DNA of 64,000 nucleotides from Amphiscolops sp. MND2022 (lineage: Eukaryota), in contig OZ076414.1 of the NCBI GenBank assembly GCA_964187785.1, forward strand, positions 63,302,001-63,366,000, in the 5' to 3' direction. The notes under the pieces were generated by a model. That model had not been told where the DNA came from, did no database searches, and was given only the letters and a program-made list of their open reading frames with translations. Of this stretch, positions 8,008 through 64,000 are shown piece by piece (the stretch's first letter is position 1; each line of letters opens with the position of its first letter). Position numbers and translations under genes: made by a program.

Positions 8008-11000
8008 ATGAGCTCCACCGAGGAGGATAATGCTGTGCTGTGTCGAAGTCAGGAAGTCGGTCTGAAGGAGAGTGAGGCAGAAGTAGAGTCCGTCGTGGGA
8101 TCAGTGGTGCGTGTTGGGGAGAGAGTTAGTGGAGATGGCAGTGATGATGAGAGTGGAGAGGCGAGTGGTGGAGGCAATCAGGAGGAAGCTGGTGTCTCTG
8201 TTGGTCACGGAGAACTGCATGTGCCAGGCTTTGGTGAAAAAGCAGTTTCTGATGATGACGGCGTTGAAGAATATGCGAGCATTGTTGCAACTGGGTCTTT
8301 CCATTCTGCATCCAGTGATGAGCGCCATGACATTGACTACTTGGCACGGAAGAAAGGTAATCTTTTCTAGAAATTAATGGGTGGCCAGCCCTTTCTAGGT
8401 TTCGTTGAACGCGTTCTATTCATCTACTTTCTGTAGCTAGCGATGATGGGTCTGATGAGGATTATGTCCCGACCCATAGTACAAAGTCCCGGCGGGAGAA
8501 GAAACCAAGGGCTAGTCGGGAGTTGTCGACCACTAGTGTGCAGTCGGCAAAGCGAGTTCGGTTGGCTGACGTCATCTCTGGTTCCATTTCCAAGTTGCCA
8601 TCTGCTCATGACAGTTCAGGAGATGACTACTTGCCCCCATGATTTCTGCTTCTCGGACTCTTGAAAGTAGGTATTCGCTCTCTTTCTTCGGGTGTTGTGT
8701 AGATGAAATGGGTTCATTTGTTGCTTTTAGGGACACTTGTTCTGCATTTTCTTGTTAGTCATACTTCATTTTGTATTACAGTTACTGGAGCAGAACCTGG
8801 ACCGGGGGTTGGGTCTTCTGAAGACAGTGACGTGTTTGTGTGCGAGGCGGCGATTGATACTCCTGCCCCTGTCAGTGATGCTGTCTCTGAACTCCCCGGA
8901 GAGTCGTCCAAGCGTGGCAGGACTCAACATGCACGAGCCGCTGTTGGGGTGGAGGCCTCAGTTGTTTACAATGACTGGGAAAAAGGTACGTTGAAATTTT
9001 CATGTTCATTGTACTGTTTGTGTCATCTCCGTGTTGTGCGATTTCTTTGTGTGGTAGTTTAGCCTCATTTCGCAGTGTTGTTAAATTTGCTCATTTGTTA
9101 TCAGCTGGCCTGGATACAGTTCCTCCTGGTTCTCCAATGGTGATGTCCGCGGCGCAGTGTGTGATGCTGGCCCGAAGTGCTGCCCGAGCTGAACGGACGG
9201 AAGTTTTAAAAGAGACGAAGAGCCTGTCAAAACGTAAGGGTGTTGTTATTATTCTATTGCTTGGCTTTCCTGACTGTTGCGATTGTTTCTTTTGGGATGG
9301 TTTTGTTTGCCACTATCTTTGATTGTCTGCATGAAGAGTTGTGGTATGTAGTTACTTGTTTAGCCCCTTGGTGTTGTGTTTAGAATTTGAAGAGTTGTCT
9401 CGTCTTTTGAAAGGGAAGGGCATCGATGTCAACAATCCTGGTCGTGTTCTGGATCCTTTAGAGGTGAAGAAGGCTAAACTGTTGGCTCGGGATGAAGATC
9501 GATCAAGGAAGCGGACGGAGCGTCACGTGTTGACGAAAGCCATGAGTGACCATGCGATTCCCCGATTGTTTGTCAGCCGGCGGAATGATAAGGGCCCAAA
9601 TGGGTTCAATTGCTCGATCTGCAAGAAAGATGTTTCCTTTCTATCCCGGGGTCCACGCGGAATCTGGAGGCACTTCAAGTGTAAGGGTCATTACCTCAAA
9701 GATCGTCGGTACCGTTACGACCATGAGGATGTGATTTATACCGAGAAGTTCGATCCCATCCGAGTTGCTGACCTGACCGCTGAACAACGTGCCGAGATTG
9801 AGGAAACTCCTCCTGTGGTATTGGGTCGTATGAACAAGTTCGTCGAAGATGAAGTAGATGCACTTGTTGGCGTCCCATCTAATGTGCCCCCGACCACTCT
9901 TGTGGGATGCTTATTGGAGCTGCTGAAAAGTGGTGGGTCCCAGTTATTCCTGCGTCGGCTGTGGAATCAGTTCCGGACTACCTTGCCAGTCGAGAGTCCA
10001 TACGCTTCAGTCACTTGGAATAAAACTGAGACCTTAGTGGTCTTGGTGCAGACTCTTTATCCGCGTGTGCTTCGTCGCGTAAAGTCATGGCTTGGGGACG
10101 GCCCGTTTAGCTTGGCGCTGCAGTCTTCATACTCCGGTGTGAGGTGTATCGTCCGATGCTGCCCCGATGACTGTCTGCGAGAAGTGCACCTTTGTGATGA
10201 AGAGCATAGTGAGACATCCTGTGAGGCTGAGATGCGTTGTTTAGCGCGTGTACTATCCCTTGTGTCAACCAGTCAAGGACCTGCGGCGATTATGGACTGT
10301 CCTCCTGTTCTGTTTAACGGGTATATCGATTGGTGTCGGGCAGTGGGCCGACCAGTCCCTGTTGTTGCTGTGAGTTTTAATCCAGATTTGTTGCGTCGTC
10401 TCATCAATGAGCTCTAGTATTGTGTGTGTGGGGTCTGTGGATCCGTTCTCGGCTCTGGAGTACTTGGTTCAGCGTCTCAAGCGGGTGCGCCATCAGGCGT
10501 GGTTGTTGAATCTGCCCCAGTTACGTTTGTGTCTGGAATCTGGAGTCGTGCCTTTTGAGTCCTTGTGTGAGGTTCTGCAGGAACTTCTGGATAACTGGGC
10601 TGACGTGAAGCTGTGTTTATCCAACAATGTGTTGTTAATGAAGAAGTCGACGACTATTGTGGATATGGATTCTCTTCTGTGTGCTGACCGTTTGGTCTTG
10701 CCGCGATTCGCCTTCTTACACGTTGTGTTACTTTGCTACAGGTCAAATTTCAGACGGCAGCTGGATCCAAAAATTCGGGATTACGCGTGCCGCAATTTTA
10801 CTGACTTTTGCTTTTTTTACTGGAGTCTTTTGGGCAAAGTGAAGAAGGTCAGTCAGCTTCCATCAGTCGACAATTGGTTCGAGTACATCGATCAGCCTTT
10901 GACCAATTGGGCGAATGTTACCGCTGGGGAATGTCTGCAGTCTGAGCCCAGCATCGTGACGGCATTGCGTGGTTTTGATGATGCTCCGCGCCGCACTTTC

Positions 11001-11849
11001 CTGCGTGAGTGCCAGGGTTCTTTGTTGGAGTTGTTGAAACACCTTGGGTCTTCAGCATATTCAAGTTCCCGTGTGGCCCGTTCTCTCAGCTGCTTGAGTG
11101 TGGATATGCTGCTGTGTGGAGATGCTGAGTACGTGGTAGAATTGTTCCAGGATCTGGTGAGTTGTTTACAGGATGCTAGCTTCCTGAGTGGCGTTGATCG
11201 AGAGGCATCTGTAAATGAATTCAAATCTCTGGTTGTGGATCTGCGTCGCCGGTCTTCTGATCCTGCCCAGGTTTGTGACGTGTTCGAGTTCCTGGAAGCT
11301 AGTGACATTTATCAATGTCGGGGTCATGTCAAGCAAGTGGTGCGCCTATTGCGAGTTATTGTGTGTCCTGGGCCAAGTGCTATGCCTCCTGTTGAGATTT
11401 CAAGTAGCGGAGTTGGTCTTCCTGTGTCTGTAATTCGTTCAGGGATCAGTGCGGTGCAGTCATTTGTTCTCCATCCCAAGTTTGTCTCAAATGATTTGCT
11501 GACCGTGGAGTGTTTGGCAGAGTTAAAGACTAATTTGCCTGTGGGGCATCAGTTCTTGTCGCGCACTTCCTTTGATCCTTTCATCGATATTAGTCGTCAT
11601 GCCTGGAGAGAAATTTTTGAAAGTTTGTTTCGCTGTTACACAGCTTATTACACTGGTCAAGTCGAGGGGTGGAGGTCCCGTATGGCTGATGGGCGATCAT
11701 CGCGTGGTTTGCAATCTGGGACCACGTCTGCTGCTGAAGCTGTTTCTGTAGCTGGAGTATCCGATGCATTGCAGGCCTCTACAAGTTCGTCGGCGCGGAA
11801 GAGGAAAACAGGGTCAAAAAAAGGGTCCCGTCAAGAGAAATCTTGTTGA
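8008..11849 (+). CDS. Antisense multi-exon cargo gene of element B: BED-like zinc finger + hAT-transposase-like body, ~1,125 aa predicted, with apparent frame lesion(s)
   Basis: Exons 8008-8356, 8437-8666, 8782-8985, 9105-9233 and 9384-11849 are joined by GT-AG introns of 80/115/119/150 nt, all phase 1. CSICKKDVSF...RHFKCKGH finger. Frame needs +1 nt at the C5 run 8634-8638, and either a lesion at ~10411 or a further intron 10370-10472. Confidence 0.7.
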
Positions 11850-53210: not shown

Positions 53211-54499
53211 TTTTTAAACCTGTATATAATTGCAGCTTTTTTGAAACTTGTTTTTACTGGCCGACTGGGATAGTGGCTGGTATGAGTAGTTGGTTGGTTG
53301 TTTCTAGTTGTTACTGGTCTATTGGGATAGTGGCTGGTATGGTTTCCTCCTTTCGATGCAGACCACTGGTGTGTGTCTTCTCCTCCAACATGATGACACA
53401 CATGGAACTTGATTAATGACGACCATCCATGATTTCTGATAGTGGAAAAAAAGCAAACAAATTCTGTCAAAAAAAAACGATTGTTAAAAAGCACTGCCAG
53501 CTGTGATTTTGGAGAAATTGTCACAATTTGTAACAATGTATCACAATTACGCGATGTGAAGTGCGTTGGTTAAAAATGTTTTTCTTATTCAGATTTTTGA
53601 TGCATGCGCTTTGCGCTGGTGATTTTTATGTACGAGTTTAATCAAGAAAAGAAATATAATTCTCAATTCACTTTCGATTTACTTTCTGAAGTAATTATGT
53701 GAGTTCGATCAGAATAATTATAAGTCTCAATTATAGTCTAATTTGTGAACTCTTAGTTCACTTCTCGTCTAATTTCTAATTCCAAATCTAAAAGTAGTCT
53801 CGTACTTAAAATTTTCGCGACTGTGCCTTCCTACACTTCAACAAAGGTAGTCTCAGGTGTGAGTTCGGATGGAAGGACTTTATTTCTACGACCCGTGAGA
53901 AAAGTGTATTTTGGACTATGAATATGTAAATTGAATCTTTCTTTATTTATATTAAAGTTGTAATAAATGTCACTCATACAAAAGCAAAGTGCACAAATAA
54001 GCATGAACAAAAAGAATATAATTAAATCAAACTTGAAATCTATCTTTAAATAATAAGAGATAAGTTGTTAGAAAAAGAATTAGTTATTAAGTCGTTTTAT
54101 GTTTTACCAGATCAAGAGGTGAAGCCTCTTTATAAGATGCAGCGATAGCTTGCAAGGTGTTTATAGTCCACTGATTGTCACGGACTGAAAAGAGAGCTAC
54201 TTGCTTCTCTTGATTAAAGGACAACAGATTGTTGTACTGGTTTTATAGAGTGCTATACGGCTACTCTTTGTCTCAAATTGAGAACAGTTCGACTTGAAGA
54301 GTCAAACAAAAACTAAGTTATTTAAGTCTCTTATAACCCAGCTGAAGCTATGGTTCTTGGTTTAGAGTCAGTATATCTACCAGACTTTAGTTTAGAGTCT
54401 ACTATAAAGCAGAGACTTTTCAATCTTTGTTAAACAAAGACGGTATGATAGCTTCTGTTCGAAGTCAAAAGTCAATTAGAACTCCAACGTAAGAGAAGA

Positions 54500-54985
54500 T
54501 TTGCTTTAACGATGAAAGCAGATTTTTGTTTTGTTTTAGATTGAAAATATTATAAGACTAAGACTTAGCTTGCCTTTACTTGAAGGCGGATTAGCAAATA
54601 GTTAAAGATTTAAATTGCTTCAATATTAAAGCAGAGTTAAAAAGCTTAAGACTTAACTTGTTTTGGCTCGGAAATATGCTAAGATAAAAATGCTTTACTT
54701 GAAAGCACGTTGGAAATAGTCTAAGACAAATTTGCTTTAACTAGAAAGCAGGCTTGACAAAAGTTTAAGTTAAAATTGCTTCACTCGAAGCAGAGTTGAA
54801 AATCGTCTAAGACAAATTTGCTTTAACTAGAAAGCAGGCTTGACAAAAGTTTAAGTTAAAATTGCTTCACTCGAAGCAGAGTTGAAAATCGTCTAAGACA
54901 AATTTGCTTTAACTAGAAAGCAGGCTTGACAAAAGTTTAAGATAGATTTGCTTTACTTGAAGCAGTGTTGAAAATAGTCTAAGAC
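54500..54985. repeat. Tandem repeat: ~43-bp subunits, two exact 86-bp dimers (54719-54890)
   Basis: GTCTAAGACAAATTTGCTTTAACTAG recurs at 54719, 54805, 54891. Confidence 0.9.
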
Positions 54986-55258
54986 AAGACTGAGCCAAAA
55001 CTTATAAAACTTTAAGAAGGTTGAAAACTTAGGCAAAAAGCACATAGACTAAAATGAGTTAAAGTTAAAGTTGAGAAAATATCTTAGAAAAATGAAAGCT
55101 CCAAAAAGAAAATTGAAATGGTTTAACTAACAAATGTTGCGCCGCGCTGAAGATGGGGATTGAACCCGTGAATGAAGATTGTAGAGTTGAAGATGAGTGA
55201 TTTATCAATTTAGTATTTTGCCAAAGGAAGAGCTCTAAGAGTTGAAAATTTGGTCTGC

Positions 55259-55431
55259 TTTTATACTAAATTTGACCGCTTCGTCAACCAGTAAAATTGA
55301 ATCACTGTTGTGATTGGTTGACGAGCATGACGTCATATGACGTCAAGTCATATGATCTGACATACGAGATCATTTTGTATGTGTATTTCGTGGGCGAAGC
55401 GTCCACGAGAAAATGATGTCATTTGACGTCA
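55259..55431 (-). promoter_or_regulatory. LTR core promoter: three CRE palindromes, CCAAT box, TATA box
   Basis: TGACGTCA at 55328, 55338 and 55424; CCAAT (minus) 55313-55317; TATAAAA (minus) 55259-55265. Confidence 0.7.
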
Positions 55432-55702
55432 TGACCAAATATGGAATGTAACCAGCGTCGCTGGACAAAGGGAGTGAACACGTTCGAGCGTGTTCAGAAT
55501 TCAGAGCTGAGTGAGAAAATAACAAAGATAAAACTGCGCAAGTCACAAAAGATAAAACTACATGTTACAAGTTTTGAGTTTATTTCTTTTTGAGTTATCG
55601 TAGTAAGTTTCTTTCTTTTTATTTGCCATAAGTCGCACACGACATCTCACCCGGGTTTCAAGATTGAAGAAATTGTAACAGGGGTACACAGGTTGTTGGC
55701 GT

Positions 55703-57148
55703 TCATGTTGATTCTTCTAGGTTAACTTCGATGAACATAGTGTCATTCAGGATGAATGGGGAGTTGCTTTTGAAGAGTTGGCTGTGTGGGATCAGGAAGG
55801 GGAAGCATATGCTCGGGTTCCCATAGCTTGTACAAGGTCGTATAAAACAAGCTGAATTTTGGTTGTCTTTTGGATCTACTATTTTAGTCCAGGTATCATT
55901 AGGCTCACTCAAATTGATTACATTAATTCGGAAGATTAATTTGAAAGGCCAGGAGAGAATTGGGTCGAACTCGCCAGGAAGGATGTTAATAACTAGTGAA
56001 GCACTCTCTCCAGTAGCAGGAGAGCATCCATAAGGGTAGAGTTTCATATCAAAGCGATACCCATGAGTTGATGTGTAGAATGGAGGGCTGTGAAAATTAC
56101 AAGGTATTTTTGGGTGCGGGTCGACGCCTTTTTGCCTTTCTAGTTCTGCAGCCTTTGCGTTATCAAACATAAGGCTGAAGGAGCTAATTCTCCAGATTAG
56201 CTTTTTGTCTCGTCCACAATCAATGCTGTGAATACGATCATAAAGATCCATTGTTAGACGTTTGAGGGGTTTCAGTTCAGCAAGTCGTCGGTGTATATCT
56301 GTTGATTCGGGCTCGGTTGAAGAAGGGATAGGAAGAGGAGTATTTACAGGTTGTTCAACAGTAGGTGTTATTATCTTCTTTTGAAGGTTTTCGACGACAA
56401 TTTGGAGTTGCTGAATGGTTCTGTCCTGTTGTCTTCGTAGGTTCTTTTCAAGCTCAAGTTGCTCGAAGAGGTTTGCAACTTGCAATTGTGTTGCGTGTAT
56501 GTATTGAGCATGTTTAAGATTGCTGAGTGGGAACTTGCTAATGAGCATCTTCATCTGGGCAAGGTCGCTGTCGGTGCATGTAGGTTGGCTGAGATTTGTT
56601 ATTTGATTTTGTAGTGTTGTAATTTCATTTTCCATGGCGGCTAATCTAAGGTTGAGCTCATCTAATAATTGTTCTTCATTTTGTTTTCAAATGAAAGCAG
56701 AGATAGCCCGAAGGGGTACTGATAGCCTCTGGTTTTTAAGAACGGTGTTTTCAATAGTAAATTCTTGTCTTTTTGAGTCCCAGAAAATAATTCTCCACTG
56801 ATTGACTTCTTTTTTGAGAGTATAGTTGAGGTTATAATGAAATCTGGGGTTTCTGGTTATCGAGTATTTTTGAGCAGCTTTTTCGCTTCTTTTTTGCTTT
56901 TCTAAAGCTTGTTTCAATGAGTATTGTGTTTTCTTCTTTTTAATACTACCGTTAAAGACAAATGTATTAGAGCTATTCGGAGGGGTAACAGTGGCGTCTA
57001 AAATTGTTTGATTGAGTGGTAGTTGAGGAATAGGAGATTCACATGAAGTGAGGTCAAACATTGGAAAATCGAGTATGTCCTTCTCTGTTAGAGTGTCTTT
57101 TGAAAGATGAAGTTCCAGATCTGACGAAAGAGAGGTGTGGTCGGTCAT
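55703..57148 (-). CDS. TRAF-like protein (N-terminal region + coiled coil + MATH/TRAF-C domain), ~481 aa, one in-frame TGA at 56687-56689
   Basis: KLIWRISSFS, HSPPFYTSTHGYRFDMKLYPYG, GEFDPILSWPF, SACFIRP, NDTMFIEV match the TRAF MATH consensus. ORFs 57148-56687 and 56635-55703 share a frame with 17 open codons between; intronless. Confidence 0.85.
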
Positions 57149-57174: not shown

Positions 57175-59310
57175 TTAAATTGGTGATATTGTATCTAATC
57201 GATTAGATGCTGGCAGACAATTTATGACGGGGTAGATGTGTTCAGAAGCATCTTGATTGTCGGTACTGAATGTTGTCATGGGAATATCTTTTGTAGTAGG
57301 ATTGAACATTGAATGGGAGATTGAAACCATAAAAAGATTATAACTTGCTGATAGTAGAATTTTACCAAATCCAACAGATGCTCCAGTAAGTCGGTGTATT
57401 TCAAAGGCTCTGACAATAGTTACTGTCACATCAATAATTAGTTTTATAAAAAGGAAAACTGCAAACCAAATACCACATTTTTCTAGCCAATATCCAATTG
57501 TGCCAAATGTTTGTCTAAATTTGCTTTCGAAGTAACCAGGAGATATCATGTTATCAACAAAGAAATCCATTTTGGGTGCGTAGTATGTATATCCTTCAGG
57601 TCCTTTCTTTGATTGTGAAGGAACAATGAGCTTTCTTGTGAATTTCTGCAAAGCATTCTTTGATGCAGAACTCATGAGTATGTTGTCCCAAAATTCAGTT
57701 AGCTGGCCTTTCGTGTACATTCCAGCGTTGATTGATTGAGGGAACTGGTCCCTTGTGAATGGTGCTACATCTTTTGGCGAAAAGATAGCAGGTCTATCTC
57801 TATGTGTGATCTGTGGTGTTAGTGAGAACCAAGAGTTCTTATCGTCCATGTCCATTTGAAAAAGGTTCTTTATGTGATCCGAACAGTTCTGAGGCATTGC
57901 ATCAGGTAAAGTTTGCCTTGTGATGGGATCTACAAATTTGATTTGTCCTTTGTAGAAGATAGGTATTTTATCGTAGCACTCGTTCATCGTATGAAGAGGT
58001 GATTTGACTAGGGGACAAGAGTAAAGCCATGCAAGGCTTCCATCAGTTTCTAAGAACATTGATCTGTTTCCAGTCAACATATATCCAGCTAGTCTTGAGT
58101 TCTCAAGTGAAAGCATCAGAATAGTGAGTATGTGCGATCGTTCTTGTTCACACTGATTTTTCAAAAGATGAAGTTCTGAGGCTTTGAGTGCTCTGGAGCT
58201 CTCAAAGAAAAGGTAGTCCAGTTTAGTTCCCTGTTGTAATTCGTAGTCCATGTTCAACCATGTTCCATAGTATGGGTCTGATTGATAGTTACTAGCAACC
58301 CAGAGTTTACTATGGCCTGGGTCATCTCTTTCTTGATCATAAGGGGAATAGTGCATCTTGTGAACTCTGTCCTCTTGTTGAATCATATTTCGTCCAGTTT
58401 TCATGTCAAATCCACCATAAAGGATAGCAACAAACAAAGATTCATAGGTTGTAGGATATACATCTGATGGTTTATTACAAAGTTTTTGTGGTCTGTTTTT
58501 GATTTCAAAGAGATATTTGTTTTCTGAATCGTTCTTACTAACAATATAGTATTGATCGTCATTTTTGATCATATTTACGTACTCCTCTTTCAGTACGGTG
58601 AGAATACAATTGTCTGGATTATCCCATACATAAGCATATGGGTCAAGAGAAGTGCTGTCACATCCCAGTTCGTCTAGCTTGCAGGGTAGAGGTTGTCCAT
58701 TTTTATTCATTATAGTCCCGTCTCTGAGTTTGACGTTCAGAGTAATATCTTGGATGTGAGTTTCAAAAGTGTCTTTTTCAATCCATTCAAAACCATCGCA
58801 TTCATTTTTGAATGTGTCGTCTGCATCGCCATTCCATCTAAGATGTTGTTCAATTATCCCTTTCTTCATTGTAATTTGATGATTTAGTAGAGTTATTGGT
58901 GATCCTTCAGCTACAAGTCTGCATTGTGCAGGCGATAAATCGAGATAGGAGGTAATCGTCTTTTGTTTGATATCGATGCTGGAATGGTCATGCATTCCAC
59001 AATAGAATCTGTTTCTTTAATGTTTGACGCTGCATATGGTAGCGTTAATTTCTGTTCGAAAATGTTTTGTGTACATCTTGACTTTGGCATGGCTCATGTC
59101 TATGTTCTCAGGAGCCACGTTACAAGGTTTGACTTGGTTGAGAGAGTAGAGATTGTTTTCTGACATTTCACTGCAATCGTAATGTGAGACTGTGACTGTA
59201 GGTGCGATATCATCCAGTATGGGCTGCTTCTTGTTGGGGTAGATGAGATTTATTGAAAGCATCAAAATGAAAATAACAAAATATTTACAGTATATCTTTT
59301 CACTATCCAT
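57175..59310 (-). CDS. env: Envelope glycoprotein, chuvirus-G-like (class III fusogen type), ~711 aa, one in-frame TAA at 59017-59019
   Basis: N-terminal hydrophobic signal, HYDC...YSLNQVKPC, FYCGMHDHSS, many Cys, C-terminal TM (CGIWFAVFLFIKLIIDVTVTIV). The two track ORFs are in frame with 7 codons between. Confidence 0.8.
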
Positions 59311-59583
59311 TATCTACTAATGAAAACGGTACTCCGAAAATACTATAAAGGGTTTAGGAATAGAAAGGTAGACTTGCTAACCTTGAGATGAAGAGAGTAT
59401 TTTGCTTTCGATGAAGCAGTGAGAAGGGCGGTTTTGCTTTCAATAGAGCAGCGAGAAATCTGTAGCACTTGGCAATACAGGTGATTTGTTCAAATTGAAC
59501 TGAAAAGAGAGCAAGAATGAATTCTGCTGAAAATTGACAATTTAGTCAAAGACAAGTGGATGATAGTCCTTTTCGTTGTAAAT

Positions 59584-60312
59584 ACACGTCTAAATACCGT
59601 GTCTTCCCGCTTAAGAAAAGTGTTCTGTTTGAAACAGACAAAAGTGAGTAGTAGCGAGGAGTTATTTATAGACGGCAGAGTTTGACACTTAGGTCTTTAC
59701 CGTCTCTTCTTGCAAGGTAATGTAGCACACGTCTAAAAACCGTGTCTTCCTGCTAAAGAAAAAGGATCTCTTTGAGACCAAGAAGAAAGGAAAATAAGAG
59801 CAGGGAGTTATTTATAGACGGCAGAGTTTGATACTGAGATCTTTACCGTCTCTTCTTGCCTGAGAAAGAGAGAGTTTAAAAAAAAGTTAAATAAAGGCAA
59901 GGTTACACGTCCAAAACCCGTGTCTTCCTACCAAAAGAAAAAAGTGATCTGATTTGCCAGTTCAGAACAATGAAAATAATAAAGGTAGGGAGTTATTTAT
60001 ACACGGCAGAGTTTAATGCAAACCGTCGTTTGATCTTTACCGTGTCTTTGTCAAAGTTTGTGACAAAAATTATAATATACGTCTATACACCGTATCTTCG
60101 TTGAGCTATGCAACGGAGTTATTTATACACGGCAGAGATTGATGCTGAGATCGTTACCGTGTCTTCTTGCAAGGATAAAATTGAATACGCACGTCCAAAA
60201 CCCGTGCCTTCCTGCTGATAAGAACTGATCTGATTTAGATCAAAAAAGAAAAAGAGCAGGGAGTTATTTATACACGGCAGAGTTTGATACTGAGATCTTT
60301 ACCGTGTCTTGC
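59584..60312. ncRNA. Array of five structured repeat units (three hairpins + fixed TTATTTAT linker) of unknown function
   Basis: Units start at 59584, 59727, 59905, 60077 and 60189; compensatory substitutions in all three stems (see findings). Confidence 0.7.
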
Positions 60313-60405
60313 ACCTAAAAAGAAGAAGTTGAATGAAAGGTTTAATTAATCACAGTACACAGTATTAAAATGAAAAGATAAAATGAAAAGATGAACGGAT
60401 GTAGA

Positions 60406-60804
60406 TTAGTTCGGCAGGCTGAGGATTTCTTCTACCTTTGACTTGTAAAACTCTTCAAAGGAGCCAAGTCCAGATTCCATAAAACAAGATAGTTCGTCCA
60501 AAAGGGGTAGGTCGAAGGTTTGTATTTCTGATGCTGAATTGTCTAAGTGGAGTGAGATGGCAATGGCTAGTTCGGCAAAGAATTTAGTTTCTTCTTCTAC
60601 TTTAATAAAGACTTTCGTCAGAGGATCTAATAGTTTATGTCCTTTTACTGTTAGCCAGAATTGGTGTTGGTACGACCACTGTAGTTGTTTTACTATTAAT
60701 ACTTCAGGACTTTCGATGGGGTCGACTAGATTATAAATTGATACAGGTAGATAAAGTGAAATTGTTTCAATTTCGTCTTCTTCTCAGAGATTGTGGATGA
60801 ACAT
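60406..60804 (-). pseudogene. Small ORF paralog 3 (132 codons, in-frame TGA at codon 7)
   Basis: MFIHNL*EEDEIETISLYLPVSI...LIVKQLQWS...LLDELS aligns with the 117- and 106-aa ORFs. Confidence 0.65.
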
Positions 60805-60933
60805 TTGGTGGTTTATTGTCGTTTTCGGGTTGAATTTTGAGGAGGTTGATTTCTAGGTGGTTGTGGGAGAATGCGTCTGATCCAAGTTTGTCTAATGATT
60901 TCCTCGCGTAGACTGAAACTCATTCGATTTTCT

Positions 60934-61254
60934 TTATGCTGCTGTTGTGTCGGCTAGCTCTCCAAGGATATGGAGTTGAAATTGGGTGATGTGTGATTCT
61001 GGTTCTTCAGCGTAATTATCCAAAGCCTCAGATAGTTGTTCTCGGAGAAATCTATTACTAGCGATTTCTAAAGTGGAGACTTTGCTTTTATTATTTACAG
61101 GGTGTATTGTTATCAAAATGAAACTGGGTTTAGTAAAGGACCACTTGAGTCTGATGATATTGAAGTTTTCAGTGACGCCTGCTGGAGTAGTTATTTTAAA
61201 CGGACAGTTGAAATTGACTTCTTCAATACATTCGTTATTAAGGTGAAAGTTCAT
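60934..61254 (-). CDS. Small ORF paralog 2, 106 aa, unknown function
   Basis: Clear similarity to 61257-61610 (FNCP.KITTP.G..ENF.I..L.WS; LHVLGEL/LHILGEL). Confidence 0.75.
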   Translation of the reverse strand: MNFHLNNECIEEVNFNCPFKITTPAGVTENFNIIRLKWSFTKPSFILITIHPVNNKSKVSTLEIASNRFLREQLSEALDNYAEEPESHITQFQLHILGELADTTAA

Positions 61255-61256
61255 AT

Positions 61257-61610
61257 CTAGTTGCTTTTGTCAATGTTTTCTGGATACATCAATGGGGTTA
61301 TTGTATCAGTTAGTTCCCCAAGAACGTGGAGGTGATACTGTTCAACGTGTTGTTCAGGATTCCGAAGGTAATCGTTTAGTGCTTTAGAAAGTTGGATTTC
61401 AAGAAAACTATTTTCTGCTACTTCAAAGGTAGTTACTTTATTTTTGTTGCTAATGGGGTGTAGTTTCACGGAGATGAAACAAGGTGATATTTGTGACCAC
61501 CTAAGTTTGGTAATTATAAAGTTTTCGGAGTTGCCTGAAGGGGTTGTTATCTTCCAAGGGCAGTTGAATTCTACTTCATCAATTTCGCCTTCATCAAAAA
61601 TTATGTCCAT
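61257..61610 (-). CDS. Small ORF paralog 1, 117 aa, unknown function
   Basis: ATG directly after the upstream TAA; paralogous to the two downstream ORFs. Confidence 0.75.
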   Translation of the reverse strand: MDIIFDEGEIDEVEFNCPWKITTPSGNSENFIITKLRWSQISPCFISVKLHPISNKNKVTTFEVAENSFLEIQLSKALNDYLRNPEQHVEQYHLHVLGELTDTITPLMYPENIDKSN

Positions 61611-61826
61611 TTAAATACTATTGTCAGCATTCAGGAATGCATCCGTTGGTGCGTTTCCAAAGAATAGAAAGATGTGATGAAAATAGTCCCAGTATATAGA
61701 CGTTGGAGGGACAGTAATAATTTTCTTCTGTTTTGTTTGGTGGTGTTGAAGGGAAACGTGGAAAGTCAAATTTCGGAAATCTTGTCTAACTATTCTGTAG
61801 AAATCGTTGTTTATCTTGATGTACAT
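61611..61826 (-). CDS. Small ORF, 71 aa, first of the cluster
   Basis: ATG 41 nt after a strong 3' splice site (61867-61868); stop abuts the next ATG. Confidence 0.55.
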   Translation of the reverse strand: MYIKINNDFYRIVRQDFRNLTFHVSLQHHQTKQKKIITVPPTSIYWDYFHHIFLFFGNAPTDAFLNADNSI

Positions 61827-62826
61827 TTGCTAGATTCGTCAGCTGATTGTGTAGTTGTAGGCTGTGCTAAAATACAAACAAAACCACGCGCTTCGACTTA
61901 CTCTGTAAAATTCATTTTAGAATCTTACAAAAGCGATCGCTAAAGAACTAGTTCAAAATTTACTTTTTGCTCAAAACAAAGGAGCTAGAGGTCAGAAAAA
62001 GATTTGTGATATTAATTGGAGAATACGGCGCTTCATGACTAAAGATGAGATTATTACAAAATGAAAGCGAAGTAATAAATTACTGTTGATTACAACAAAG
62101 GAGTTTTGCGGCAAGTCATTTTCATTGTTCTATTAAGGAGGAGCTGAAATGTTTGGCGGCTGAAATGAAAGCTAGTTATGGAGCTGAAAAGACAATAAAC
62201 AAAGACGTGAACAAAGACATTAAATTGCTTTTTAAGTGAGAGTAAAGATAAGTTGAACAAAGCAATTATTTGATGAAGTTGAGTTATTTGGTGGCTGAAA
62301 ACAAAAGATTGTTATCAACAAAAGTGAAGCGTGAACAAAAGTTAAATTGAAGAAAGAAGTTGACAATATAACAAAAGTTTGAACAAAGCATAACTTTACC
62401 ACTTCAAGATAAAGTAAGTTGGTTTTTTTTTCAAATAAAGATTACAGTAGTTATTCATTTACTAATATAGTTTTATAAAGCATTAAGATGTAACAGATGG
62501 ATAAAGAATTTTGTTGGGGGTCTTCCTTTGTTTTTGTAGTTTCTTCTTTGTTTTCTTCATTTTGTCTGCTGATTTTCTGGGCTGTTCAGTTGGGTGTTTT
62601 TCGGGTGTTATTTTCTTGCGTTACGTTTTACTTTTTCTAGTTTTGATTTCTTCTAACTACGAAGTAGTCCCACCGCCGTGGAACGAAAAGTAGAAATTCT
62701 GTGGTTTTTCGGTGGTTTCGCGCCGAGCAGTTTTGGTTGGGGTAGCCGGGAAATTTTTTGAGGTAGGGGGGTGCTGAAAGTGAATTTTCAATCTGTGTAT
62801 TTTCAGAACGCTTTGATTAAAATAAA

Positions 62827-63336
62827 ATGGGCAGTTTGAATGATTTGTTGTTACCCGTTGTCGATGCAACTGAGGACGTGTGGGCTTCTATGTTTTGCCC
62901 ACAGGAGTTAGCGTCACTGAAATCTCTTGTCAGTGATTTGCATCAGCCGATGCTAAACATGGGCGCTGTATTTCCTCTGGACGTGGAGGAACGGTTGTCC
63001 GTTACCTTGCAGTTCCTGGTTGGTGCGGTTGACGTAAGTTCTTTCTTATTTTATCAGTTGTAGTTGTATTAGTTTCTTGTCGTAGTTTTGATGTCTTGTT
63101 TGAGTAGATAGAGAATGTTGATTTGGTCGTGCAATTTTTTGTTGTTTCAGTGGTTTCCTGTGCTGGCCGGCAGTGCAACAACTAGTAAGATTGTGTTTCG
63201 AGAGTTGGAGCATATTCAACAAACGTATTCAAAGCTAACTCGGTTGGCTAAACGTGAGGTGGTGGTAAGGTGGGAAATGCTCGATCATAAGCCAGTGATT
63301 GAGTTCTTGCGCCGGCCATTGTTTATAAACGAATAG
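62827..63336 (+). CDS. Antisense two-exon gene inside element F, 130 aa, unknown function
   Basis: Exon 62827-63033, intron 63034-63150 (GTAAGT...TTGTTTCAG, 117 nt, phase 0), exon 63151-63336 in frame. Confidence 0.7.
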
Positions 63337-63424
63337 AACTTGGTTATTGTAAATATTTTGTATATTCTTTTTTATAATCGGGTCTTTTGTATTTTGGTTT
63401 TTGGTAAGCTGAGCAATACAGTAT

Positions 63425-64000
63425 TTAATCTTTATATCCCTTTCTTTCCAAGTTTCGTAGTGAGCTATCGGGATGAGAGCGCTTGTATTTTGCTTTTACT
63501 TTCGATGTAAGATCAGCAACTTTATTTTTCTTTTTTGGCGATGAAGACGTAGATTGTTCAGCTTCATGAAATTGCGGCGTTGTCCTCAAAATAGTAGGAG
63601 CACGAATAGGCATAGGAGTCATAGGCAGTATAGGAGTTTGTAGCGGCGGCAATGGTGAAATCGTTAAATTTTGATAGTTGTGATCATCATTGGTAGGCGT
63701 AGAAGGAGATTGAATTCCTGAATCAGCATTAGGCGAACGTGCAGCGTGATTTTTGCTCATTTCTTGAATATTGGTGTTTTCTTGTAGCGGCGATATGATA
63801 AAAGGCATTACATCTAGGGAACATCTTTGTTGATTTGAATTGTAGTCATTTATCTGTGACTGCACTAAGTGTTTGTAGAAATCACTATCTTTTGTTATAG
63901 GCGGCGCGTAGTTAGTGATTAAAGGAGGGAGTCTTTCCTCTTTAGGAAAGTATTCAATCAGGTGATTCCGATGAGTAACTTTGATATTATCCGGGTTAGC
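63425..64000 (-). CDS. pol: C-terminus of element F Pol (integrase tail), partial
   Basis: Frame open from the window edge: VTHRNHLIEYFP (typical end of the GPY/F region), then a Pro/Ser-rich tail ending SLRNLERKGYKD. Confidence 0.7.
   Translation of the reverse strand, partial: ANPDNIKVTHRNHLIEYFPKEERLPPLITNYAPPITKDSDFYKHLVQSQINDYNSNQQRCSLDVMPFIISPLQENTNIQEMSKNHAARSPNADSGIQSPSTPTNDDHNYQNLTISPLPPLQTPILPMTPMPIRAPTILRTTPQFHEAEQSTSSSPKKKNKVADLTSKVKAKYKRSHPDSSLRNLERKGYKD

Follow-up and report, generated by a model that had tools for sequence, protein, structure and literature searches.

Animal LTR retrotransposons are usually described as gag-pol or gag-pol-env elements. Env-bearing Gypsy elements are known across animals (PMC13524379, PMC12440569, PMC7642597), and include the Ty3/Gypsy elements called 'ancient errantiviruses', which carry an HSV/gB-type env (PMC13524379). 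Extra ORFs in LTR elements are also on record in the cited parts of several reports (PMC7264820, PMC5408684, PMC10309623, PMC11952523). Among reverse-transcribing viruses, RTBV and the badnaviruses are described as using leaky scanning through AUG-free ORFs (PMC5902531). Termination-reinitiation is associated with UAAUG and AUGA overlaps and a stop-to-start distance of no more than about 20 nt in one account (PMC10275272), and with the UGGGA/UGAGA motif of TURBS in another (PMC4334499).

The element described here shares with the ancient errantiviruses, as presented in the main text of PMC13524379, the LTR-gag-pol-env order, a multi-copy presence as young insertions in an animal, and an env that matches a fusion-protein profile. 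It differs from them by five extra ORFs ahead of env and two behind it. That main text contains neither 'accessory' nor 'mini-ORF' and has two generic mentions of an 'additional ORF'. Our literature search found no description of the cassette family and none of an animal LTR element whose multi-ORF cassette is read by leaky scanning; Repbase or the supplements of PMC13524379 may hold the element or list its family.

A five-ORF cassette in an env-bearing Gypsy element

The window analysed here is a 64,000-nt stretch of the 1.07-Gb assembly of Amphiscolops sp. MND2022. The cassette, ORFs A to E, is encoded on its minus strand and separates pol from env in a Ty3/Gypsy-type LTR element of 18.6 kb, which runs on past the window (positions 53555-72128 of the extended window). 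From 5' to 3', this carrier consists of an LTR, gag, pol, a 1.6-kb variable spacer, A-B-C-D-E, a 1.1-kb repeat spacer, env, a 153-aa ORF, a MATH-domain ORF and an LTR. The paired 2090-nt LTRs have TG...CA ends and differ by 6 mismatches (3' LTR, 53555..55644; 5' LTR, beyond the window at 70039-72128 in extended numbering), and a 4-nt target duplication flanks the carrier, as is characteristic of LTR elements. The 3' end of pol occupies 63425..64000. In a 98%-identical copy, Pfam matches to PF03732 (Retrotrans_gag), PF00078, PF17919, PF17921 and PF00665 follow each other in that order and confirm the Gypsy domain order of RT, RNase H and integrase; the protease has no Pfam match in this copy. 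In pol of the carrier family, a weak macrodomain match lies between protease and RT (L039:1-360; PF01661, E 0.0022, below cut-off).

The env-like glycoprotein gene (57175..59310) is broken into frames of 97 and 606 aa in the window copy. It matches the Monjiviricetes fusion profile PF24664 (E 3e-39 on a 711-aa copy; 135 bits against a cut-off of 27), a sequence-profile match that does not imply a gB-like fold. The 153-aa ORF (56687..57148) has no Pfam match, and the last ORF (55703..56635) carries a TRAF/meprin MATH domain (PF21355, E 3.8e-22 on a 348-aa copy). A MATH ORF before the 3' LTR is kept in three env-bearing families (window 55703-56635; L106:1656-2408; L115:1618-2622) and is a possible decoy of innate-immune signalling. 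A 176-aa ORF of a more distant family (L114:6628-7158) looked MATH-like by eye and was set aside, being unsupported by both Pfam and hhalign.

The carrier belongs to an abundant group of copies. A DNA search of the genome gave 205 candidates, of which the 40 scored are all 89-100% identical, and the closest copies reach 97-100%; protein searches gave 394 candidates with E and 651 with B, 150 of which were scored for each. A near-identical duplicate of the carrier's 5' part and flank, truncated in the repeats, lies 45.9 kb downstream (contig positions 63408122-63426000; L025, L026) and is either a recent segmental duplication or an assembly artefact. The spacer after pol (61990-63424) varies between copies far more than pol or env; of its two plus-strand ORFs, 78 and 73 aa long, neither is conserved and neither gives a Pfam match above cut-off. 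In the leader (L021:5662-6038), two short related hydrophobic ORFs of 40 and 52 codons, each with T at -3, stand between the primer site and gag and may encode membrane peptides. The window also holds a second Gypsy element (gag 19317-17755, pol 17584-12170), in whose region two long antisense ORFs (291 and 480 aa; 9542-11849, plus strand) have no Pfam match over cut-off.

Within the cassette, ORF A (61611..61826) encodes a basic protein of 71 aa (pI 9.2) that forms a family of its own. ORF B (61257..61610) encodes an acidic protein of 117 aa (pI 4.7) and belongs to an unnamed family together with its 106-aa paralog C (60934..61254) and the distant paralog E (60406..60804), which has 132 aa in most close copies. 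ORF D (60813..60923) encodes a basic peptide of 36 codons (36-40 in other copies) with a pI of 12. B, C and E are acidic, and A and D are basic. The lengths of A to D, and the A-to-B and B-to-C junctions, TAA-ATG (0 nt) and TAG-AT-ATG (2 nt), are exactly those given by an earlier sequence-only reading of this stretch; the C-to-D and D-to-E gaps are 10 and 8 nt. That reading also listed a third paralog of 132 codons. The paralogy of E stands, but its frame is not open in the window copy, where an in-frame stop at codon 7 leaves a stop-to-stop stretch of 125 codons. Preservation in other copies, on which the reading depended, was found for each ORF: among the 20 closest genomic copies, B and C are full-length in 20, A and D in 18 and E in 16. 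In loci picked for diversity (up to 60, with old decayed copies included), the corresponding fractions are 42/60 for A, 24/40 for B, 31/41 for C, 46/60 for D and 34/60 for E.

Paralogy, selection and predicted structure

Local alignment against 2000 shuffles gave z values of 52.9 for B/C, 10.5 for B/E and 5.3 for C/E, so that the similarity of the three paralogs, first noticed from the sequence alone, is significant; identity is 51% for B/C and 22% for B/E. A CPW motif and an invariant Trp recur across the family, whose C-terminal helix reads PEPH...L..LGEL. Two of the motifs originally named as shared, W(S) and L..L.EL, are invariant in B, C and E; the third, P.KI, is absent from E. A and D are unlike all other cassette ORFs by sequence (z <=1.6, 2000 shuffles). 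A was also considered as a sequence paralog of B/C/E and rejected, with hhalign probabilities of 0.5 and 0.13 that lie below shuffled controls; the feature that it has in common with them is the predicted order of strands and helices.

All five ORFs are under purifying selection between subfamilies. Where dS could be measured, pairwise Nei-Gojobori comparisons between subfamilies gave a dN/dS of 0.06-0.28 for all but one of 16 within-gene pairs, the exception being a near pair at 0.40 (E 0.06-0.19; A 0.07; D 0.17-0.28; B 0.18-0.23; C 0.16-0.40). Three further A pairs are saturated at synonymous sites with a dN of about 0.2. Between B and C, dN/dS is 0.14-0.16 with dS above 2. Positive selection was not seen in these pairwise values, all well below 1 between subfamilies. 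The ORFs might nevertheless be functionless passengers that stay open merely because the copies are young, a view that could draw on the high identity of close copies, on a pooled dN/dS of 0.6-2.1 in near-identical pairs, and on the broken E and env of the window copy. Such near-pair values are as expected from post-insertion decay, whereas the low ratios between subfamilies, at a dS of 0.5-1.2, are counted as already refuting passengers, and the family has sister-family homologs at E 1e-10 to 1e-21 as well as homologs in another host; we give the passenger view almost no credence.

AlphaFold2 models were obtained for B, with four strands and two helices (pLDDT 79.9), and for A, with four strands and a helix (pLDDT 77.1). 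Foldseek returned nothing at E<=0.001 in the PDB or viral libraries, with weak rows for SsgB, PURA and SAS-6. In VIA-align, the best Z for B was 4.3, with EF-P and Tudor rows at 3.3-3.8; for A it was 5.0, to small SH3/KOW-like barrels such as EF-P domain I (rmsd 1.4-1.6, 45 aligned). Both match lists include EF-P domain I and Tudor-type barrels, and according to the tool's own note a Z of 5 may reflect a common arrangement. The structure prediction that the earlier reading had suggested thus yielded models and no clear fold match, which does not show that the predicted fold is new. A derivation of A from eIF5A was considered and discarded, as no profile match to the N-terminal exon of host eIF5A was found.

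A wider protein family with two genomic positions

Homologs occur in other env-bearing families of the genome, which were sampled as 20 stretches. In two related families these homologs are F (134-136 aa, E ~1e-10) and G (154 aa, E ~1e-20), the latter overlapped through a TAATG by a homolog of A. A more distant third family has a similar run of three ORFs with overlaps of -1 and -8, of weak or unproven homology. There, a 168-aa ORF after pol is clearly above controls (probability 61, score 32 against a shuffled maximum of 16); as further remote members, a 132-aa ORF was marginal and ORFs of 113 and 73 aa were not above controls, and these were not retained. No such cluster was found in the stretches sampled from the remaining env-bearing families.

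Of the 47 representatives that a profile search returned at E<=0.001, one is probably a spurious repeat protein; ten were looked up, and all ten are unnamed ENA records. With a wider search, the analysis defines a protein family of at least 465 clusters at 90% identity, unnamed in all 120 clusters listed. No Pfam match over cut-off was found for A-E, the sister-family homologs or seven distant homologs, which agrees with the earlier description of the family as unknown. A sequence search of the PDB for a known identity gave best E values of 0.052 (Kalirin) and 0.12, and none for A. The ESM Atlas gave one match of 0.75 to an unnamed viral cluster and no other usable match.

No match of more than 52% was found in this genome for representatives P0061 and P0058, which thus likely come from other hosts; no relatives of P0061 were found in a viral contigs database. 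Metagenome contig L144 carries a tandem run of three family members immediately ahead of a homologous gag, with gaps of 44, 7 and 16 nt, and on contig L143 a single member lies 18 nt ahead of gag. These members match the window-family profile with E values of 7e-20, 2e-11 and 1e-4. A hydrophobic ORF similar to those in the carrier's leader was seen by eye ahead of the member on L143. A 31-row tree unites B with C (100/99), joins F and G in a group with P0060 (95/94), and keeps the pre-gag members separate (95/91); E and one pre-gag member are on long branches and their placement is unsure. The separation of the pre-gag members makes independent expansions at two positions, before gag and before env, likely.

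Copy number and haplotype exchange

The number of B/C/E paralogs varies across sister copies. Among 80 loci, chosen rather than sampled at random, 39 have the layout ABCDE, 19 ACDE and 17 ABDE, and 5 are tandem or rearranged. Seven of the 19 single-gene copies profiled are B-type over the first 45 nt (93-100%) and C-type thereafter; three others switch further in, three are pure B, four are pure C and two are partial deletions. These B/C chimeras indicate that crossing over between B and C contracts the array. Cassettes are also mosaic with respect to their surroundings. In four elements compared with one reference copy, dS is 0.09-0.19 in the 5' part of env but 0.38-1.04 in D and E, which shows that old cassette haplotypes move between otherwise close elements.

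The sequence-only reading proposed a gene-accordion-type expansion. Tandem paralogs that change in number by recombination bear this out; of the adaptive expansion under host pressure that the term implies, the pairwise dN/dS, well below 1, gave no sign. In poxviruses, gene accordions consist of short-lived runs of identical copies that form under demonstrated host pressure. The cassette resembles them in its tandem expansion and contraction by recombination, whereas its paralogs are neither identical nor transient: they are old, with B/C synonymous sites near saturation.

Expression of the cassette

Internal ATGs are depleted in the cassette, at 5.1 and 2.9 per kb in two cassettes compared with 17-28 per kb in gag, pol, env and the MATH and 153-aa ORFs. 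Out-of-frame ATGs number 5 against 10.9 expected from synonymous shuffles in one of the two (P 0.006) and 3 against 9.7 in the other (P<0.001). Low counts recur in the third family (3.2-4.2 per kb) and, at 5.9 with P 0.016, in the array before gag; the cassette of the second family shows no depletion (14.7 per kb, P 0.21), and gag is likewise poor in internal Met. The depletion is incomplete, ORFs A-C being depleted of internal AUG and not free of it. About 10 ATGs stand between the starts of A and E (counted in L003, the closest copy of the window element); unless the majority are weak, they would make it inefficient for ribosomes to scan as far as E and env.

A purine at -3 marks a strong start codon. 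In a tally that leaves out four other accessory starts, position -3 is a pyrimidine in 16 of the 21 cassette starts and a purine in 10 of the 12 gag and env starts; the purine preference of the host was checked on one gene (eIF5A) only, and since the copies are related, counts over copies are not independent. The starts of A, B, D and E have a pyrimidine at -3, the T of B being forced by the abutting stop; C is the exception, with G. The env start has A at -3 and G at +4.

The spacer between E and env (59311..60405) has no sense-strand ATG in 1095 nt, against 16.6 expected from a base shuffle and 9.4 from a first-order Markov model. The spacers of 73 related copies contain 88 ATG and 1036 CAT, and those of the sister families 0-2 ATG. 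The spacer holds five imperfect tandem repeats (59584..60329) at a spacing of 126-185 nt, and TATAAATA recurs in every one of them on the sense strand. Two families have a 34-nt repeat core in common, which lies before env here and before the A homolog in the sister family (L105:6911-7703; L107:6989-7521), with five copies in the window family and 10-14 in the sister family.

A candidate 3' splice acceptor (61867..61883), a pyrimidine tract plus TTTTAG, ends 40 nt before the start of A and is aligned in 24 copies. For 72 of 76 starts of A, the motif TT[TC][TC]AG lies within the preceding 70 nt, and in 70 of these 72 no ATG intervenes; the motif is present in both divergent leader haplotypes and resembles the acceptors of one host eIF5A gene. 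One of the leader haplotypes also has a donor-like GTAAGT about 35 nt before the acceptor (61867-61901), usually with an ATG enclosed; the other haplotype lacks it. Together, GTAAGT and acceptor form a possible micro-intron. Two loci (L078, L090) were examined as spliced genomic copies and rejected, their deletion junctions being without GT-AG ends.

These features suggest a model in which a spliced subgenomic RNA would start at the acceptor 40 nt before A. At each weak AUG, part of the scanning ribosomes would initiate; the others would continue downstream and may cross the AUG-free spacer to reach env with its strong start. Reinitiation may contribute at the tightest junctions. The depleted internal AUGs, the AUG-free spacer, the weak starts and the restriction of UGGGA to the A junction favour leaky scanning over TURBS-type reinitiation on the sequence evidence. 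The need for leaky scanning would be most obvious in the pre-gag layout, where three ORFs have to be passed.

The earlier reading instead proposed termination-reinitiation, which as the chief route would resemble that of caliciviruses, rhabdovirus accessory genes or SART1. The spacing suits it: 201 of 205 junctions have a stop-start distance of -4 to +14 nt, within the 20-nt range of reinitiation, TAATG and ATGA overlaps included, and the A-homolog junction is TAATG in two other families. Compaction of the genome does not explain such tight junctions, since the non-coding spacers are long. At the A junction, 38 of 51 copies have UGGGA, 81 nt upstream of where A ends. However, UG[G/A]GA is found at 0 of 154 other junctions (B-C, C-D, D-E, B-D), and at A it is spelled by Trp-Asp codons and missing where Asn replaces Asp. 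Four rounds at the 3-20% each given in PMC10275272 would leave almost nothing, and reinitiation does not require AUG depletion inside the ORFs. Together with the weak starts, this makes reinitiation improbable as the chief mechanism; the two processes can coexist. A different explanation assigns each ORF, or at least env, its own mRNA and treats the tight packing as a leftover of duplication; such mRNAs could arise by alternative splicing or trans-splicing at separate acceptors, or be transcribed from a promoter inside the TATA-bearing repeats. It would account for the five TATAAATA repeats upstream of env, for acceptor-like sites seen by eye in the spacer, and for an AUG-free spacer, which suits a 5' UTR; the env RNA of Tor elements arises by splicing or from an internal promoter (PMC4402516, in the part cited). 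Against it, acceptor-like motifs before B, C, D and E are sporadic and not conserved, the sister-family repeat lacks the TATA and is placed before the A homolog, and AUG depletion inside A-E is left unexplained. As an account of the whole cassette we regard it as decidedly improbable. A separate mRNA for env alone is likely, judging from the sequence features, and the AUG-free spacer fits a separate env promoter just as well as scanning.

Function and comparison with known systems

On balance, and with somewhat better than even confidence, we read the cassette as five selected accessory ORFs, with B/C/E varying in number by recombination, that would be translated from one RNA mainly by leaky scanning into host-protein-binding counter-defence products. 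Taken by itself, the functional part is tentative and falls somewhat short of an even call: the acidity of B, C and E, which argues against direct nucleic-acid binding, the turnover in copy number, the exchange of haplotypes and the neighbouring TRAF-type MATH ORF point to small factors that may bind host proteins. The proteins might instead regulate the element itself, through transcription at the repeats, RNA export or particle assembly, in the manner of Rev, Tat or CERV-type factors. The basic A and D would fit such a role, as would the SH3/KOW-like barrels, EF-P domain I among them, that head the structural matches of A, and the repeat unit that travels with the cassette in two families; in another host, the family's place directly before gag would tie its dose to Gag. 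We nevertheless consider self-regulation rather unlikely, since B, C and E are acidic, a Z of 5 is in the range of common arrangements, and copy-number variation and haplotype swaps between near-identical elements would be unexpected for a core regulator. This alternative concerns function alone and is compatible with leaky scanning.

A broader reading of the counter-defence cassette, which we put forward as a doubtful possibility, is that an animal Gypsy clade carries a movable, expandable operon-like module: one small-barrel family, perhaps including A, would have been amplified independently before gag and before env, swapped as old haplotypes, and translated along with Env or Gag by ribosomes that scan one RNA over 2.5 kb and five ORFs. 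If so, a retrotransposon would possess a dose-tunable anti-host arsenal of complex-retrovirus grade. The hundreds of candidate copies (394 and 651) offer a natural system for how eukaryotic ribosomes read many ORFs per RNA, and let one ask whether accessory-gene copy number tracks host conflict.

Among described systems, the Tor elements of Oikopleura, in the part of PMC4402516 cited here, are comparable in being LTR elements of marine-invertebrate type that obtain their env RNA by splicing or from a promoter between pol and env; that part mentions no accessory ORF cluster. The hapavirus PMIP genes (U1-U3) are, in the cited part of PMC4334499, tandem, low-identity small accessory paralogs between structural genes, and stop-start junctions occur in the rhabdovirus family as they do in the cassette. 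This likeness is one of layout; hapaviruses are RNA viruses with separate transcription units and clear UGGGA TURBS at their stop-start sites. The nearest parallel in translation is with RTBV and the badnaviruses, which, in the cited part of PMC5902531, are likewise reverse-transcribing and have small AUG-cleared ORFs with weak starts and tight or fused junctions, followed by a structural ORF. In these plant viruses, two ORFs over about 900 nt are involved, whereas in this animal element five ORFs and a spacer take up 2.5 kb upstream of env, and in another host the family stands upstream of gag. With seven extra ORFs, the carrier bears sequence marks of a polycistronic translation that is best known from plant pararetroviruses.
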